Shown: one piece after another, positions 19,189-60,096 of the stretch
Layout of the letters: each line of letters starts with the position of its first letter
How positions within the stretch are numbered: the stretch's first letter is position 1
DNA from: an uncultured Ruminococcus sp.
GTDB lineage: Bacteria > Bacillota > Clostridia > Oscillospirales > Ruminococcaceae
Direction: 5' to 3'
Assembly (NCBI GenBank): GCA_937926145.1
Contig: CALANW010000118.1
Coordinates: forward strand, 18,338 to 82,337
Length of the DNA stretch: 64,000 nucleotides
Notes under the pieces: generated by a model
Database searches by the model: none
The model's input: only the letters and a program-made list of their open reading frames with translations
What the model was told of the DNA's origin: nothing
Program-made: the position numbers and the translations under genes

Positions 19189-19860
19189 ATGCAGAGAATA
19201 CTTGTTGTTGACGATGAAAAAATGATACGAAATGTTATTAAGGAATACGCCGAATTTGACGGTTTTGAAGTCACAGAGGCTGAGGACGGAATGGAAGCGG
19301 TCGAAATTTGCCGCAAAGAAGACTTCGACCTTATAGTTATGGATATAATGATGCCAAGGCTCGACGGATATTCGGCGATAAAGGAAATTCGCAAGACCAA
19401 GCAGATACCCGTCATAATGCTTTCGGCAAGGGGCGAGGAATACGACAAGCTTTTCGGCTTCGAGATAGGCATTGACGACTATGTTGTAAAGCCTTTCTCC
19501 CCTAAGGAGCTTCTTGCAAGAATAAAAGCTGTCCTCAAGCGCGCAGCCGCAAAGGAACAGCCAATGGATATTATCCGTTACGAGGGTCTTGAGATCAACG
19601 TCACGGGCAGAGAGGTCAGCGTTGACGGCAAGCCTGTTTCGCTCACGCCAAAGGAATACGACCTGCTCTTCTACCTTGTGCGGAACAAGGGCATCGCACT
19701 TTCGCGTGAAAAGCTCCTCGAAGAAGTATGGGGTTATGACTTCTTCGGCGATGACAGAACCGTTGATACACATATAAAAATGCTCCGAAATTCCCTCGGC
19801 GAATACCGCAAGTTCATCAAAACTCTGAGAGGAATGGGATATAAGTTTGAAACAACATAA
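19189..19860 (+). CDS. OmpR/PhoB-family response regulator
   Basis: Start at MQRILVVDDE after AAGGAG. Receiver domain (DLIVMDIMMPRLDG) plus winged-helix C-terminus (LRGMGYKF). Confidence 0.92.
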   Translation: MQRILVVDDEKMIRNVIKEYAEFDGFEVTEAEDGMEAVEICRKEDFDLIVMDIMMPRLDGYSAIKEIRKTKQIPVIMLSARGEEYDKLFGFEIGIDDYVVKPFSPKELLARIKAVLKRAAAKEQPMDIIRYEGLEINVTGREVSVDGKPVSLTPKEYDLLFYLVRNKGIALSREKLLEEVWGYDFFGDDRTVDTHIKMLRNSLGEYRKFIKTLRGMGYKFETT

Positions 19861-21274
19861 AAGTATCTTGAACCTCAAAACGGCGATATGGATGTACTTG
19901 GTCATCTTTATAACGGGTATTTTTGTACTGCTGTGGTTCACGTTCGGCGTGTCGCTCGAAGCGAACTACAAGAGCAAAAAGACCAAGGACATCGTTTCTA
20001 TCGCTTCGTATATTCTCAAGGGCTGGAACGAGGACGGACTGACTACCGAAAATCTCGACAATACGGCATACAATAATAATATGTGCATCCTTATTCAGGA
20101 CGCCGACGGCTACACGGTATATTCCTACGATATGATGGCGAACAACTGCCTTATCCACGGCGTTTACAGCCTGAACCTTTTCAAATACCGAAATCAGGCT
20201 CTTGCGAGCAGCAACGGCTATTATTACGCCGAGGTCAACAACCCGCGCTTCAACACGAACACACTGCTTTTCGTTATGGTCATAGGCTCGGTCGATGACC
20301 CCGAGGGCTATATTTACCTCAACACCTCTCTCGCACCGCTCAAATCGACCGCTGATATTATCAAGCGGCAGATATATTGGATAGGTATTATCCTGCTTCT
20401 GCTCGGACTTATCATTGCGTATTTCCTCGCGTCCGTTATCGAAGCGCCTATCGTCCGCATTACAAAAACCGCGAAGAAAATGGGCGAGGGAAACTACAAC
20501 GTTGTCTTTGACGGACACGGATATGAGGAAACGGAAATTCTCGCCGATACTCTGAACAGTGCGGAGGAAGAAATCTCAAAGGTCGATACTCTCCGCCGTG
20601 ACCTTATCGCGAACGTTTCGCACGATCTGAGAACGCCGCTCACAATGGTCAAAGCCTACGCCGAGATGATACGCGATATTTCGGGCGATAATCCGCAGAA
20701 GCGCGCTGAACATCTGAACGTTATCATCGAAGAGAGTGACCGACTTGCAAAGCTCGTCAATGATATCCTTGACCTTTCCAAACTTGAAAGCGGCAACTTT
20801 GAGATAACCGAAACGGAATTCTGCATCACCGACACGATACGAAGCATAATGGAGCGCTATACCCTGCTTTCCGAGCAGAAAGGCTACACCTTTATCGTTT
20901 CTGCCGAGCAGAATTTCATCGTCAAAGCCGATGCTGTTAAAATTCAGCAGGTAATTTACAACCTTATCAACAACGCCGTCAACTACACGGGCGAGGACAA
21001 GACCGTTTATATCACGCAGATAGTCAAGAAGAAAAAACTCGTCCGAATCGAGATAACCGACACGGGCGCAGGCATCGACCCCGAGCTGATACCGCTCATC
21101 TTCGACCGCTACTACCGCACGGAAAAGAGCAAGCGTGAGGTCATCGGCACGGGACTTGGACTTTCCATAGTAAAGCAGATACTCCAGCGCCACAACTATG
21201 AATTCGGCGTTCGTTCCGAAAAAGGTGTCGGAAGCACATTCTGGTTCGAGATGCCGGGACATCTTGAAGAATAA
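19847..21274 (+). CDS. sensor histidine kinase (HAMP-HisKA-HATPase)
   Basis: 475 aa with H-box SHDLRTPL, N-box NLINNAVNYT and G-boxes DTGAGI and GTGLGLSIV. The TTG start overlaps the regulator stop, so the start is uncertain. Confidence 0.9.
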   Translation: MKQHKSILNLKTAIWMYLVIFITGIFVLLWFTFGVSLEANYKSKKTKDIVSIASYILKGWNEDGLTTENLDNTAYNNNMCILIQDADGYTVYSYDMMANNCLIHGVYSLNLFKYRNQALASSNGYYYAEVNNPRFNTNTLLFVMVIGSVDDPEGYIYLNTSLAPLKSTADIIKRQIYWIGIILLLLGLIIAYFLASVIEAPIVRITKTAKKMGEGNYNVVFDGHGYEETEILADTLNSAEEEISKVDTLRRDLIANVSHDLRTPLTMVKAYAEMIRDISGDNPQKRAEHLNVIIEESDRLAKLVNDILDLSKLESGNFEITETEFCITDTIRSIMERYTLLSEQKGYTFIVSAEQNFIVKADAVKIQQVIYNLINNAVNYTGEDKTVYITQIVKKKKLVRIEITDTGAGIDPELIPLIFDRYYRTEKSKREVIGTGLGLSIVKQILQRHNYEFGVRSEKGVGSTFWFEMPGHLEE

Positions 21275-21384
21275 TGCGTAATTCGTAATGCTTAATGCGT
21301 AATTATTTTGTTCCGCAGGTTTACGGTGAGAACCCTATCTTCATAGGGACGGGTTTATATTCGACTGTTTTCCAACAAAAACTC

Positions 21385-21413
21385 TTGACATATCAGTTTA
21401 AAAGTCTTATAAT
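21385..21413 (+). promoter_or_regulatory. consensus promoter of candidate antitoxin sRNA, copy 1
   Basis: TTGACA (21385-21390), 17-nt spacer, TATAAT (21408-21413). Confidence 0.7.
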
Positions 21414-21419
21414 ATAAAT

Positions 21420-21512
21420 ACAAAGAGGGCACACCGATAGACGGTCACTCCCAATATTTAGGTTAAGAAATAACCGTCCAAGTTTGGTCGCTCTGGGCGG
21501 TTATTTCTTTTT
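21420..21512 (+). ncRNA. candidate antisense (antitoxin) sRNA, copy 1 (ends approximate)
   Basis: No ORF. It ends in the hairpin GAAAUAACCGUCC...GGGCGGUUAUUUC (21467-21507) plus U5. The 3' end overlaps the last four codons and the 3' UTR of the convergent peptide gene. Confidence 0.55.
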
Positions 21513-21590
21513 ATTGTTGCAGCAATTCAACACTATCTGTATGATATTGCATATAAGTATTCCTAAAGATACAACTTCTGTGATACTCAT
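21501..21590 (-). CDS. 29-aa hydrophobic peptide, candidate type I toxin, copy 1
   Basis: Own translation: MSITEVVSLGILICNIIQIVLNCCNNKKK. The GGGGG SD lies 9 nt upstream. The peptide has one TM-like segment and a Lys tail. Confidence 0.6.
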   Translation of the reverse strand: MSITEVVSLGILICNIIQIVLNCCNNKKK

Positions 21591-21657
21591 ATCGCAACGC
21601 CCCCTTTCAGGGAGCAAAGATTGACCGCCTACCGTTTCTGGTATGCCCATAGATTCT

Positions 21658-21686
21658 ATTTTATCTTTTATGTTGAAATTTGTCAA
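21658..21686 (-). promoter_or_regulatory. promoter of peptide gene, copy 1
   Basis: Minus strand reads TTGACA (21686-21681), 17-nt spacer, TAAAAT (21663-21658). Confidence 0.6.
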
Positions 21687-21775
21687 TTATTTGAAATAAA
21701 TACACTTTTTTGTTGTTTTAAGCATCGACAGTTTACAATTGATAATTTTGTCGGAAACAAAATCAAAAACAGCTC

Positions 21776-21804
21776 TTGACATATCATTTTAAAAGCATTA
21801 TAAT
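21776..21804 (+). promoter_or_regulatory. consensus promoter of candidate antitoxin sRNA, copy 2
   Basis: TTGACA (21776-21781), 17-nt spacer, TATAAT (21799-21804). Confidence 0.7.
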
Positions 21805-21810
21805 ATAAAT

Positions 21811-21902
21811 ACAAAGAGGGCATACTGATAGACGGTCGCTCCCAAAATTAGCGAAAAAAAGTAATCGCTCCGGTTTGGTCGCTCGGGCGGTTACTTCTTT
21901 TT
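21811..21902 (+). ncRNA. candidate antisense (antitoxin) sRNA, copy 2 (ends approximate)
   Basis: Same architecture as copy 1, with a terminator hairpin at 21858-21897 plus U5. Confidence 0.55.
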
Positions 21903-21980
21903 ATTGTTGCAGCAATTCAATACTATCTGTATGATATTGCATATAAGTATTCCTAAAGATACAACTTCTGTGATACTCAT
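21891..21980 (-). CDS. 29-aa hydrophobic peptide, candidate type I toxin, copy 2
   Basis: Own translation gives a peptide identical to copy 1. Only 2 of 90 nt differ and both changes are synonymous. Not in the ORF track because it is under 60 aa. Confidence 0.6.
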   Translation of the reverse strand: MSITEVVSLGILICNIIQIVLNCCNNKKK

Positions 21981-22046
21981 ATCGCAACGCCCCCTTTCAG
22001 GGAGCAAAGATTGACCGCCTACCGTTCAGGTATGCCCATAAACCTT

Positions 22047-22075
22047 ATTTTATCATTTAAATAGTATTTTGTCAA
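22047..22075 (-). promoter_or_regulatory. promoter of peptide gene, copy 2
   Basis: Minus strand reads TTGACA (22075-22070), 17-nt spacer, TAAAAT (22052-22047). Confidence 0.6.
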
Positions 22076-22139
22076 TTATTTGAAATAAATACACTTTCTT
22101 GTTGTTCTTATAGTAAAAATAAAATCTGCACATTAAATC

Positions 22140-22183
22140 AACAGACCTGTTTTCGAGGATTTTTCCTTGAAAACAGGTCTGTT
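22140..22183. terminator. long perfect hairpin (15-bp stem), member of a repeated terminator family
   Basis: AACAGACCTGTTTTC-loop-GAAAACAGGTCTGTT. Near-identical stems occur at 42234-42277 and 48030-48072. Confidence 0.65.
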
Positions 22184-22379
22184 CGTTTATTTCATAACAC
22201 ATTGCGGCGCAGGATGGGCAACCGTCCATTGTAGTTTCGTGGGTCGCTAACGGGCGGATATGGAATCCGCCCCTACGGAATTCAGCCTTTCGTAAAATAT
22301 GCGGAGCAAGAATAATTGCGCATTACGAATTACGCATTGAATTAATTCCGCATTCCGAATTCCGAATTTAAACCAAGTA

Positions 22380-22943
22380 TTATCCTACCGCATTTATACT
22401 CATAGTATAAACCGCTTCATCATTATCCATATCATCGATAGCCGCGTGGTAGTTGTATATCCGCGCAAGTGCGTTCCATGTCGCGTGATTGAGATCACCC
22501 GTTACGGGCAGACCCGATATCGCTTGGATTCGGCGTATCTCCTCGGCGGTTTCGCTGTCATAGATCCCGTTTATCGCCGCACCTTTAAGATTGTCGTAAA
22601 ACTGCGCGATAGTGTTTAGCATCACCTGAATGATATAAACGGGATAGCCTGCCGAGCCTGTCGTTAGTGGAGTTTCGCTGACCGCGCGCGGATTTATGCT
22701 TTCAAGCTCGGCGAAGAACAGTGCCGCTTCTTTATACAGCTTATAAAGTTCGTCCCATGTCCTCGGATCGATCTCCCCCGTTTCGGGCAGACCTCTCTCA
22801 CGCTGAAATGCCGCAACTGCGTCCCTTGTGTCATCACTGTAAGTTCCGTCTGCGACAGTCATAGGGATATTGGGGTTGTATTTCGATATCGTCCGAAGAT
22901 AACGCTGTGCCTCACGAACGTCCGAAGCTTTGTTTTCTGCCAT
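22380..22943 (-). CDS. peptidoglycan-binding domain protein (two PG_binding_1-type repeats)
   Basis: 187 aa with two copies of the pattern DG.Y...T..AV..FQ...GLP.TG..D..TW..L. Confidence 0.75.
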   Translation of the reverse strand: MAENKASDVREAQRYLRTISKYNPNIPMTVADGTYSDDTRDAVAAFQRERGLPETGEIDPRTWDELYKLYKEAALFFAELESINPRAVSETPLTTGSAGYPVYIIQVMLNTIAQFYDNLKGAAINGIYDSETAEEIRRIQAISGLPVTGDLNHATWNALARIYNYHAAIDDMDNDEAVYTMSINAVG

Positions 22944-42099: not shown

Positions 42100-42102
<3 letters not shown>

Positions 42103-42585
42103 TTCGGAATTAGGAATTCGGAATGCGGAATTAGTTTGCTTCGCAAATAATTTTAAATCGTTGGGGCGGATTCTATATCCGCCCTTTTCGTGTTTAATTG
42201 CTAATTGGATTTTCGATATGCGAATAAACAAAGACAGACCTGTTTTCAAAGAATTATCCCTTTGAAAACAGGTCTGTTCGTTTATTTTATACTAAACACC
42301 AATTAAAAACTATACAAAAAATCAAGCAAAAGCTCGTAGCTGTTATAACAGCTTGATGTTGAAAACAGGTTTATATGGCTTTTGCGCCGATTTTTTGTCT
42401 ACACTTTGATTAAAAATTAGTATTATAACGCCTTGCGGCGCGGGACGGGAAACCCGTCCCCTACAGTAGTTCCGCTGTAATTCGTAGATTGCATCGGGCG
42501 GATATGGAATCCGCCCCTACGAAAATCCGTTTTTTCGCCGTAAATTTTCGGAGCAAAATAATTCCGAATTCCGCATTCCGAATTA
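42100..42585. repeat. mosaic intergenic repeat locus B (type example)
   Basis: Left array T(AATKMGG)x4AATTAG at 42100-42134. Right array (ATTCCGM)x3 at 42558-42585. Palindromes at 42163-42184 (+), 42442-42464 (-) and 42496-42520 (-). Central terminator hairpin at 42234-42277. Confidence 0.85.
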
Positions 42586-59673: not shown

Positions 59674-60096
59674 TAAATTCGGAATTCGGAATGCGGAATT
59701 CGAAATTATTTTGCTCCGTAAATTTATGGCGAGAACCGATTTTCCGTAGGGGCGGATTCTATATCCGCCCGATAAACGCACGATTTTGTTCCGCAAAACG
59801 GAATGTAAAGGACGTTTTTCCAGTTCCGCGCCGCAAGGCGTTTATACAATAAAAACAACCCTGTTTCAATGGCTTTTAACCGATGAAACAGAGTTGTTTT
59901 GTTATGCGGTAAACCATACCGAAATATATGCACCGAAAAATCGCTGGCGCGATTCGGGACGGGCAACCCGTCCCCTACAGAAAATGCGCCCAAATATAGA
60001 TTTTGCATCGGTCGGATATGGAATCCGACCCTACGATTTACGGCAATTTGCGGAGCAAAAATAATTCCGAATTCCGAATTCATAATTCCGAATTTA
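59674..60096. repeat. mosaic intergenic repeat locus G
   Basis: Left array at 59674-59708 and right array at 60059-60096. GTAG-headed palindromes at 59746-59770 (+), 59956-59978 (-) and 60010-60034 (-). Terminator hairpin at 59852-59900. Confidence 0.85.

Follow-up and report, generated by a model that had tools for sequence, protein, structure and literature searches.

Within the window, the whole 64,000-nucleotide stretch of DNA that was analysed, a histidine kinase gene (19847..21274, plus strand; read from the ORF list and the sequence, with an orthologue in each of 18 genomes of the genus) faces a convergent gene for a PG-binding protein (22380..22943, minus strand; also in the ORF list and conserved as the neighbour in relatives), and the interval between them holds two units of a candidate toxin-antitoxin (TA) pair. 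A sequence-only reading of this DNA had described the interval as bracketed by inverted heptamer arrays with sub-terminal modules just inside, and both descriptions were borne out. On the left, the TAA stop codon of the kinase gene (21272-21274) doubles as the first triplet of a T-type (TAATKCG) array on the plus strand (21272..21307), which reads T followed by the four AATKCKT units AATGCGT, AATTCGT, AATGCTT and AATGCGT and an inner AATTATT cap. The composite right array, on the minus strand (22311-22369), has two parts, a T-type array on the inside that carries the AATTATT cap (22311..22338) and is kept in all the relatives of the TA clade, and an outer G-type array (22339..22369; two AATTCGG units, one AATGCGG unit and the cap AATTAATT) whose end lies 11 nt short of the stop codon of the PG-binding gene. 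The left sub-terminal module, of class A (21308..21375, plus strand), joins a linker with TTGTTCCGCAGGTTTACGGTGAGAACC to a GTAG-type hairpin that is degenerate here but intact in the related genome G013 (GTAGGGGCGGATTCTATATCCGCCC); the module agrees with a consensus present inside about 60% of the arrays of the genome. Of the two hairpins among the right class-A modules (22205..22310, minus strand), the one of GGGACGGG type is degenerate and the GTAG-headed one (22252-22276, minus strand) is intact; a linker closed by CGGAGCAAG (22302-22310, minus strand) completes the set. Between the two sides lies an unstranded central terminator hairpin with a 20-bp stem (22140..22183), assigned to the repeat family by alignment to its members, and the stem recurs at 42234-42277 in the window.

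The interval had also been called free of ORFs, which is correct apart from two 29-aa toxin ORFs, one in each TA unit. Unit 1 (21376..21766), delimited from its promoters, sRNA terminator, ORF and predicted folds, has an sRNA promoter at 21385-21413 (plus strand), an sRNA at about 21420-21512 (plus strand), a toxin ORF at 21501-21590 (minus strand) and a toxin promoter at 21686-21658 (minus strand). Unit 2 (21767..22100) is a tandem copy with about 89% identity to unit 1, where the corresponding features are the sRNA promoter at 21776-21804 and the sRNA at about 21811-21902 on the plus strand, and the toxin ORF at 21891-21980 and its promoter at 22075-22047 on the minus strand. Both sRNA promoters match the consensus at 12 of 12 positions and the other two promoters at 11 of 12. 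As predicted from the sequence, each toxin ORF shares its last codons with an sRNA terminator (21485-21503 and 21876-21893). The fold of the first sRNA has a z-score of −5.2, and in the toxin 5' UTR the Shine-Dalgarno sequence is predicted to be paired in a leader hairpin. The toxin peptide MSITEVVSLGILICNIIQIVLNCCNNKKK, present twice at the locus, is small and hydrophobic with a membrane-spanning core, and its 26-aa paralogues keep the same pattern.

On these features the two units may be regarded as candidates for working type I TA systems. In families such as par/Fst of pAD1 (RNA I-RNA II) and, in Bacillus subtilis, TxpA/RatA and BsrG/SR4, the two RNAs are convergent and overlap at their 3' ends, and the Ldr and Ibs/Sib loci of E. 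coli first came to notice as intergenic repeats, LDR and QUAD. The present units share with chromosomal type I families a short hydrophobic peptide that ends in a basic tail, a predicted convergent antisense sRNA with its own strong promoter and a shared terminator region, a structured leader that would hide the Shine-Dalgarno sequence, and a multi-copy, tandem and intergenic occurrence. They differ in that some of the candidate copies are nested in another repeat family, and in that neither sequence nor profile searches linked them to a described family of toxins or antitoxin RNAs: four toxin variants queried against Pfam and NCBIfam gave no match at E ≤ 10, and the Rfam search gave no sRNA match at the gathering score, the weak best being ohsC_RNA (E = 0.37). 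Rfam matches at E ≤ 1 were discarded as chance hairpin matches. This want of relatives is what could be expected if the units were not TA systems but a small RNA gene beside a small ORF that is untranslated or has nothing to do with it, as might be the case in a regulatory RNA repeat. We consider that very unlikely, however, since the hydrophobic 26-29-aa ORF with its lysine tail is maintained across copies that are only 72-89% identical in DNA, and a consensus promoter, a sequestered Shine-Dalgarno sequence and a convergent sRNA across the 3' end of the ORF come together in a family that is multi-copy and often tandem, as the chromosomal type I families are.

The TA pair is flanked by the left hairpin on one side and by the central terminator on the other. 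When it is taken out, the rest of the interval can be aligned over its whole length with ordinary family members of about 350 bp, with class-A matches of the join at 59675-60094, 42100-42585, C7:12216 and C46:27832, and the modules follow one another as array, linker, GTAG hairpin, terminator, hairpins, linker and array. The frame around the pair is thus a typical member of a repeat family. In the window, the two-unit pattern of the arrays was matched 32 times as against 2.9 ± 1.7 times in shuffled sequences, none of 100 shuffles reaching 32, and the matches sort into inverted pairs at six loci. The genome as a whole contains 225 period-7 arrays, about 190 of them in the AATKCGK family, and 54 inverted array pairs with interiors of 43-1006 bp. 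The brackets had been said to enclose only about 100-480 bp at the other loci, and this holds within the window but not genome-wide, where five bracketed interiors measure 754-1006 bp and four of these are without TA; a 1-kb interior is therefore not peculiar to the TA locus. The same heptamers and the same cap are found in many phyla.

Comparison of the same junction in related genomes, read by eye, gave all the states that one could wish for to order the events: empty, with arrays only, with arrays and TA, and with the TA deleted. Empty sites with a plain terminator only were found in G001 and G004, distant species whose kinases are 73-74% identical, and these sites are too diverged to define the boundaries of an element; no target-site duplication was evident. 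Arrays without TA occur in G018 and G016, where T-arrays surround the terminator alone, in G010, which has other arrays and one GTAG hairpin, and in G009, with a T-array and a class-B module. Arrays together with TA occur in G000, G007, G012, G013 and G014, and in G002 the TA was deleted, and only the −35 box of unit 2 and the spacer between the units are left as remnants. Thus, TA at this junction was always accompanied by at least remnants of arrays, and arrays were present in all nine of the readable ingroup genomes. In the kinase tree, where the key nodes all have support of at least 98/96, the genomes G000, G014, G007, G012, G013 and G002 form one clade (100/99), sister to G018/G016, with G010 and G009 next out. 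Arrays were widespread at the junction, and the TA occurs in a single derived clade that branches from among array-only genomes, with one later loss in G002. No genome was found that has the exact class-A frame at the junction free of any trace of TA. Because the array-only relatives hold other interiors rather than the class-A frame, a joint arrival of the frame and the TA is possible.

The arms themselves also vary among these genomes. The left array is as described here in G012 and G013, and only one or two of its units are left in G014. A G-type array at the outer edge is found on a single side, on the left in G007, as an additional array ahead of the left one, and on the right in G000, G014 and G002, the right outer array being absent from G007, G012 and G013. 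In G014 it is shorter than in G000 by a 28-bp deletion of four units. Such changes by multiples of 7 bp between sister genomes, along with the one-sided outer array, may suggest that there is no element at all, and that the arrays decorate the 3' ends of genes and grow in place by replication slippage, which has been held responsible for the excess of heptamer repeats in bacteria (PMC4692102). On that view every convergent region would have the appearance of being bracketed, and the TA would be merely intergenic. In keeping with this, 143 of 191 arrays (75%) face and adjoin the 3' end of a gene at a median of 5 bp, many of them across the stop codon and often with their start on its TAA, on gene calls made by a crude longest-ORF procedure, and solo arrays are common. 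However, arrays occupy both ends of 25 convergent intergenic regions as against about 4 expected under independence, a roughly sixfold excess, and the types at the two ends of a pair are correlated (GG 30, TT 13, mixed 11; Fisher p = 1.4e-4, odds ratio 13). Moreover, conserved linker and hairpin modules lie in mirror orientation just inside the arrays, entire interiors recur as full-length families with 72-82% identity over at least 90% of their length, array pairs are found beside the 5' ends of genes too, and identical heptamers and cap in so many phyla would not be looked for from slippage. Growth in place as the whole explanation consequently seems to us quite improbable.

We favor, with moderate confidence, the interpretation that the TA pair is nested in a pre-existing cassette, into which it was inserted later, and is not the payload of that cassette. 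The interval would be one of a set of palindromic intergenic cassettes spread through the genus, each arm of which would run from a heptamer array, at or within a few bases of a stop codon, through the AATTATT cap and a linker of about 35 nt to a GTAG-headed, REP-like hairpin, with a terminator hairpin as the centre. A candidate TA module of about 330 bp would have landed later in the centre, with the left hairpin to one side of it and the terminator to the other, and would then have been duplicated in tandem. The module would extend from promoter to promoter, taking in the sRNA with its own promoter and terminator and the convergent gene of the 29-aa hydrophobic peptide, whose 3' end would overlap the sRNA terminator. 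Its route of arrival was probably recombination with, or duplication from, a paralogous TA copy. Of the two histories offered by the sequence-only reading, a scaffold that carries or has captured passenger DNA and TA units that entered a pre-existing element, the comparison thus supports the nesting and favors the insertion, which we regard as probable; we do not claim for the pair the status of true cargo.

The distribution of the TA family elsewhere bears on this point. TA copies are present in 15 of the 19 genomes of the genus, including genomes without AATKCGK arrays (G008, with five matches, G015 and G005), and most of the non-orthologous TA loci in relatives have no array in their 1.5-kb flanks. 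The homology among the TA copies spans from about 10 nt before the −35 box of the sRNA to about 25 nt past the −35 box of the toxin, whatever the flanks. In the genome under study there are four TA loci, and the question whether the other copies too are bracketed has a divided answer: the locus on C164 (G000), which has an orthologue in G010 (L158), is bracketed, with its sRNA promoter about 30 nt from a GTAG hairpin, and the loci on C148 and C114 are without arrays within 2.5 kb. A third locus associated with the repeats, on C7 of G013 (L154), has an array and a class-A module on the sRNA side. The pattern that would have refuted the sequence-only reading, TA units at this site with no arrays and other copies never linked to the repeats, was not observed. 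By the array-free copies and genomes, the TA and array families are independent. Their repeated occurrence together would be accounted for by the accumulation of both in long convergent intergenic regions, and the repeated bracketing at C164/L158 and L154 could also reflect a real affinity.

It can nevertheless be argued that the pair is true cargo, such that the arrays serve as handles for homologous or site-specific recombination and the class-A frame entered together with the TA as one unit, replacing an earlier interior. The T-type arrays do persist at the junction while the interiors differ wholly (terminator only, class-B, one GTAG hairpin, class A with TA), two or three TA loci that are independent of one another are bracketed, and like arms enclose a PF05635 gene both in the same genome, between inverted (AATAGTT)n arms at C47:1057-1410, and in Nostoc (L044; PF05635 match at E = 1.2e-24), between (AATTCGT)n arms, so that arms around a coding payload exist. 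Against this, the same TA with the same cassette junctions was not found at two sites, as C118, C164/L158 and L154 share only the TA and generic modules, and since no second locus combines the TA with cassette-specific junctions, joint mobility is unsupported. The spacers between hairpin and TA are unlike at the two bracketed loci, the left and right arrays do not mirror each other in the order of their units (identity of 0.85 versus a null of 0.86), and the bracketing of two of four TA loci is not significant (P about 0.15) when conditioned on the 18% of long convergent intergenic regions that are bracketed. Nor was a recombinase or transposase found to co-vary with the arrays among 19 genomes, as judged from Y1_Tnp and PF05635. 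Entry of frame and TA as one unit is accordingly unlikely in our estimation.

With respect to mobilizing enzymes, the search was made with PF01797 (Y1_Tnp) only, and in this 99.5%-complete genome it returned a single gene, C74:7071-7427, which is IS200-like with unrelated ends and has neither GTAG hairpins nor arrays in its flanks. The array-rich genomes G013 and G002 had no Y1_Tnp match. A RAYT for the GTAG hairpins was rejected, as the sole Y1 gene is of the IS200-like kind, has no such hairpins beside it and shows no co-variation with the arrays in the genus. Y1_Tnp and PF05635 each occur in 9 of the 19 genomes, with no clean overlap with the array-bearing ones, and PF05635 as a partner of the arrays was uninformative (7 of 13 array-bearing versus 2 of 6 array-free genomes); the ORF list has no PF05635 ORF in the TA-bearing interval. 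A further conjecture, which we hold to be rather doubtful, is that the inverted arrays are the working handles of exchangeable intergenic cassettes and that the TA pair is real cargo which stabilizes its cassette by addiction. On this conjecture at least four unrelated interiors, namely the terminator only, a class-B stack, GTAG hairpins, and hairpins with TA, have taken each other's place at this one junction between lasting T-type arrays, and like arms enclose PF05635 genes in this genome and in other phyla.

The cassettes resemble several kinds of known repeats without coinciding with any of them. They share with MITEs the terminal inverted repeats, here inverted arrays and mirrored linker and hairpin modules, and the many full-length copies at unrelated sites (54 pairs, 72-82% identity), but they differ from a MITE with cargo in that no cognate transposase was found in the PF01797 search and no cargo-end junctions are shared across sites. 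The BIMEs of E. coli are mosaic intergenic repeats of REP-type hairpins. In common with REP/BIME elements, the cassettes have GC-rich GTAG-headed hairpins in inverted pairs, about 180 such hairpins of two subtypes occurring genome-wide, placed just past stop codons, chiefly between convergent genes, and with modular mosaic interiors; the heptamer arrays at the ends of their arms, however, have no counterpart in REP/BIME elements. REP-type hairpins also form REP/REPIN doublets (PMC3116915), from which the present case differs in that the Y1_Tnp search gave no hairpin-flanked RAYT in the genome. Cassettes around PF05635, the 23S rRNA intervening-sequence protein, likewise have inverted heptamer arms around an interior, but the TA locus has no PF05635 gene and lies outside rRNA. 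The heptamer repeats of cyanobacteria are said to have been named STRR by Mazel et al. in 1990. Like STRR-like repeats, the present arrays are intergenic, have 2-6 units, lie near gene ends at many sites per genome, are patchy across phyla and vary in length between close relatives, inverted pairs having been noted in both; they differ in their AATKCGK unit and in that they end full-length repeated cassettes with conserved inner modules. Three tandemly repeated heptanucleotides have been described in Calothrix and GGGAATC / GGGGAYT repeats in Xanthomonas and Nostoc (PMC4692102), and TAACTGA repeats in Beggiatoaceae, Cyanobacteria and Bacteroidetes (PMC4679880), for which regulatory or G-quadruplex roles but no mechanism of spread have been proposed (PMC4692102, PMC4679880). 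Literature searches on the heptamer sequence and on small dispersed repeats gave no description of the AATKCGK family.

Considering these findings, a single junction provides a full natural series, from empty through arrays only and arrays with TA to TA lost, by which the events can be ordered. Not only does the series order the events, it also shows how fast the arms change, in 7-bp steps, through a further array gained at the stop codon on one side only, and where the last codons of a gene are replaced. Two repeat families that a reader could easily fuse are now separated, with long convergent intergenic regions as their shared sink. Should the arrays prove to be handles for recombination, the locus would count as one of the first in which they enclose a defined functional module that is not PF05635. 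The TA units themselves represent an undescribed candidate family of type I toxins from gut Ruminococcus-like bacteria.

The bracketing of the kinase-to-PG-binding interval by inverted heptamer arrays, as described in the sequence-only reading, proved correct when the sequence was read directly and the pattern counted. In the source genome (3.17 Mb, 176 contigs), where the window spans C118:18338-82337, the histidine kinase ORF (19847-21274, plus strand) ends in TAA, and this stop is the first triplet of the left array, TAATGCG TAATTCG TAATGCT TAATGCG TAATTATT (21272-21307). On the opposite side, the first part after the PG-binding gene (22380-22943, minus strand) is a G-type array, AATTCGG AATTCGG AATGCGG with the cap AATTAATT (22339-22369, minus strand), followed inward by a T-type array with the cap AATTATT (22311-22338, minus strand) and then, on the same strand, by CTTGCTCCGC... 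and a GTAG-headed hairpin. The two-unit heptamer pattern has 32 matches in the window versus 2.9 expected, and these form inverted pairs at six loci.

Genome-wide, we found 192 arrays of at least three units (184 with composites merged), in two flavours, AATTCGG-like (G) and AATGCGT-like (T), with the inner end nearly always AATTATT; about 190 of the 225 period-7 arrays reported by TRF belong to this family. A gene 3' end lies on the outer side of 143 of 191 arrays at a median distance of 5 bp (5 bp or less in 81 cases), and the TAA stop is often supplied by the array itself. There are 54 plus/minus pairs, enclosing 43-1006 bp, and 52 of these interiors have no called gene, while a crude gene caller gave one ORF in each of the other two. 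Arrays at both ends were seen in 25 of 371 convergent intergenic regions, as against about 4 under independence, and the ends of a pair tend to share flavour (GG 30, TT 13, mixed 11; p = 1.4e-4). Unit order is not mirrored between left and right arrays in the 54 pairs. Two cassettes, C78:25186-25542 and C92:20979-21335, are 99.4% identical with identical outer flanks; either a larger region has recently been duplicated or the assembly includes it twice.

Immediately inward of the cap sit a few conserved linker and hairpin modules: class A (TTGCTCCGCAAATTTACGGCGAGAACCGAATTTCC, then GTAGGGGCGGATTCTATATCCGCCC or GTAGGGGACGGGTTTCCCGTCCC), class B (TGCATAGCT..GCGAAGCCAA.., then more stacked hairpins) and a short class starting AATTAAGCTTCGC. 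The interiors, which fall into families of ~350 bp (class A) and 0.75-1 kb (class B), align to each other full-length at 72-82% identity. ORF-poor, mirrored class-B stacks of 0.75-1 kb lie between arrays at C165:71133-72141, C103:19454-20515, C46:33997-34883 and C114:8484-9300; each is a long imperfect palindrome of several nested hairpins with a common terminator (GGCGCAATTCACA...). Thus, the earlier statement that other loci enclose only 100-480 bp holds inside the window but not across the genome, and a 1-kb interior is not special to the TA locus. When the TA-less flanks were joined (21272-21383 + 22093-22369), the product aligned end to end with 59675-60094 and 42100-42585 in the window and with C7:12216 and C46:27832 on other contigs, in the order array, linker, hairpin, terminator, hairpins, linker, array. 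The locus is a class-A cassette interrupted by the TA pair, which has the left hairpin on one side and the central terminator on the other.

The insert consists of two tandem units, spaced by ~390 bp and 89% identical. On the plus strand, each has a perfect TTGACA-17-TATAAT promoter and a predicted RNA of ~92 nt with a strong terminator at its end; the minus-strand features are an 11/12 promoter and a 29-aa ORF, MSITEVVSLGILICNIIQIVLNCCNNKKK (21501-21590 and 21891-21980), whose last codons are contained in the sRNA terminator. In each toxin leader, a GGGGG Shine-Dalgarno sequence is predicted to pair with CUCCC. As far as can be judged from sequence, this layout is that of a convergent type I toxin-antitoxin module, and since neither the 29-aa peptide nor the ~92-nt RNA matched any described family, we infer the TA label from the anatomy. 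The toxin peptides at the kinase junction, MSITEVVSLGILICNIIQIVLNCCNNKKK, MSISEVLTLGILICNIIQIMLNNSKK and MGVIEVLTLGLLICAVIQIMQNSNKK (window; loci L002, L003 and L158), diverge strongly despite 97-98% kinase identity between genomes, suggesting that paralogous copies have replaced one another or that the peptides evolve rapidly. A palindromic, MITE-like element of ~110-120 bp (AAGGAAACGCTGATTAA...TTAATCAGCGTTTCCTT; variant AAAGCAAAGCCGATCAA...) occupies the same position in the toxin 5' leader of several TA loci, where it may inactivate toxin expression, and is also found beside an array in G016 and directly past the kinase stop in G003; it was seen at L003:1040-1170 (minus strand), L008:1270-1380 and L014:2940-3055, and as split matches in G014:C27, G012:C7 and G007:C27. 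At the G010 orthologue of C164, the toxin leader contains a different small inserted element with the inverted ends ACTAATTCCAAACC / GGTTTGGAATTAGT (L158:1060-1195, minus strand).

Kinase orthologues were found in 18 genomes of the genus, and direct reading of the junctions among these relatives revealed all three states that had been sought, namely empty, element-only and element-plus-TA sites. G013 and G012 have T-arrays around class A and one TA unit; in G012, a palindrome of ~120 bp is inserted into the toxin leader. In G007, the left array is G+T and the right T, the first TA unit has another toxin variant and the second has its toxin deleted; in G014, one TA unit sits between arrays eroded to 1-2 units. 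In the case of G002, a different heptamer (AATTGAY) makes up the left array, which takes the place of the last kinase codons; the right array is T+G, and of the TA only the inter-unit spacer and a single -35 box remain. G018 and G016 hold a single terminator inside T-arrays, and G010 has outer arrays of a third heptamer enclosing 1-2 T/G units, a terminator and one GTAG hairpin. G009 shows a T-array and class-B module up to the contig end, where an Illumina adapter (AGATCGGAAGAGCGTCGTGTAGGG; L009:1-30) directly past the class-B hairpin is contamination of the public assembly. In G001 and G004, the kinase stop, a plain terminator and the stop of a convergent gene follow each other without arrays. 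Synteny is broken in G003, G008, G011 and G017, where another gene follows the kinase, and G015, also with another downstream gene, has two units of a different heptamer and a GTAG hairpin after the kinase stop. T-type arrays persist at the orthologous junction while the interiors are wholly different between lineages with kinase identity of 90% or higher: terminator only, class B, a GTAG hairpin with outer arrays of the third heptamer (GGAGTTT/GGAGAGT), or class A with TA (L002, L007, L008, L009, L010 and window 21272-22369).

The maximum-likelihood kinase tree, ((G001, G008), ((G009, G010), ((G018, G016), (G007, G012, G013, G002, (G000, G014))))), where G000 is the source genome, has support of 98-100 at the named nodes. 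Considering this tree together with the junction states, the most parsimonious interpretation is that the arrays at the junction predate the TA, which was acquired a single time, on the branch leading to the six-genome clade, and lost in G002. The TA would then have inserted into a cassette-occupied junction and undergone tandem duplication afterwards. Because relatives with arrays but no TA have different interiors, the class-A frame may instead have reached the junction together with the TA.

The TA pair had been proposed to be either cargo of the repeat scaffold or a later insertion into it. This reading is partly supported: the pair is nested in a bona fide member of the repeat family, while cargo in the sense of transport by the arms lacks support. 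Neither the source-genome copies nor the loci from relatives gave evidence of joint movement of TA and arms, and the cassette-TA junctions differ from locus to locus. The homology limits of the TA are identical in every context, with no inverted ends or duplications seen at them. Bracketing of other TA copies, which the same reading had raised, applies to some only. Besides the two units on C118, the copy at C164:43139-43342, which has no toxin leader, is bracketed, and its orthologue in G010 (L158, on C144) is fully bracketed with a complete TA; the copies at C148:2323-2634 and C114:16853-17169 are without arrays, C139 holds a fragment, and G013:C7 (L154) has an array and class-A module only on the sRNA side. 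Because 18% of convergent intergenic regions of at least 300 bp are bracketed, two bracketed TA loci out of four corresponds to P of about 0.15. About six of roughly 22 non-orthologous TA loci from relatives have an array in their flanks, L158 and L154 among them. The TA family is present in 15 of 19 genomes of the genus, frequently as two or three copies in tandem, and these genomes include G008, G015 and G005, where AATKCGK-family arrays are absent. Cassette exchange through the arrays seems to us improbable.

Array differences between close relatives are of three kinds: changes by multiples of 7 bp (G014 versus the source genome), gain or loss on one side of an entire G-type array of 35-37 bp placed exactly between stop codon and T-array (left in G007; right in the source genome, G014 and G002), and substitution of the C-terminal kinase codons (G002). 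In the last case (L006:1400-1500, minus strand), the kinase has lost its last codons (HLEE) and ends inside the AATTGAT/AATTGAC array, which provides a new C-terminus (KLKAIDN) and stop codon. A RAYT-type enzyme was considered for the GTAG hairpins and is absent, the sole Y1 transposase gene in the genome being IS200-like and unrelated to them. Intergenic heptamer repeats (Calothrix heptanucleotides, GGGAATC, TAACTGA) have been published without a mechanism (PMC4692102, PMC4679880), and we found no description of the AATKCGK array family.

Within the order, the arrays are found almost exclusively in this genus, with a single match among 200 other genomes versus 13 of 19 species of the genus. 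Exact matches to AATKCGK x3 + AATTATT were also seen in Nostoc, Dolichospermum, Stigonema, Bacteroidales, Myxococcales, Chloroflexia, Ignavibacteriae and others, often as inverted pairs (loci L021-L137, e.g. L044, L054, L026, L045); in Odoribacteraceae (L026), the order is reversed, with the two arrays placed tail to tail and separated by 60 bp. The Nostoc locus L044 has an ORF between the arms that matches PF05635, the 23S rRNA intervening-sequence protein family (E = 1.2e-24). The single PF05635 gene of the source genome (C47:1057-1410) lies, outside the window, between inverted (AATAGTT)n and (AACTATT)n arrays (C47:1000-1450), the left of which begins in the stop region of the upstream gene. 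Given that PF05635 is bracketed in both places, arms round a payload are a real and wider pattern.
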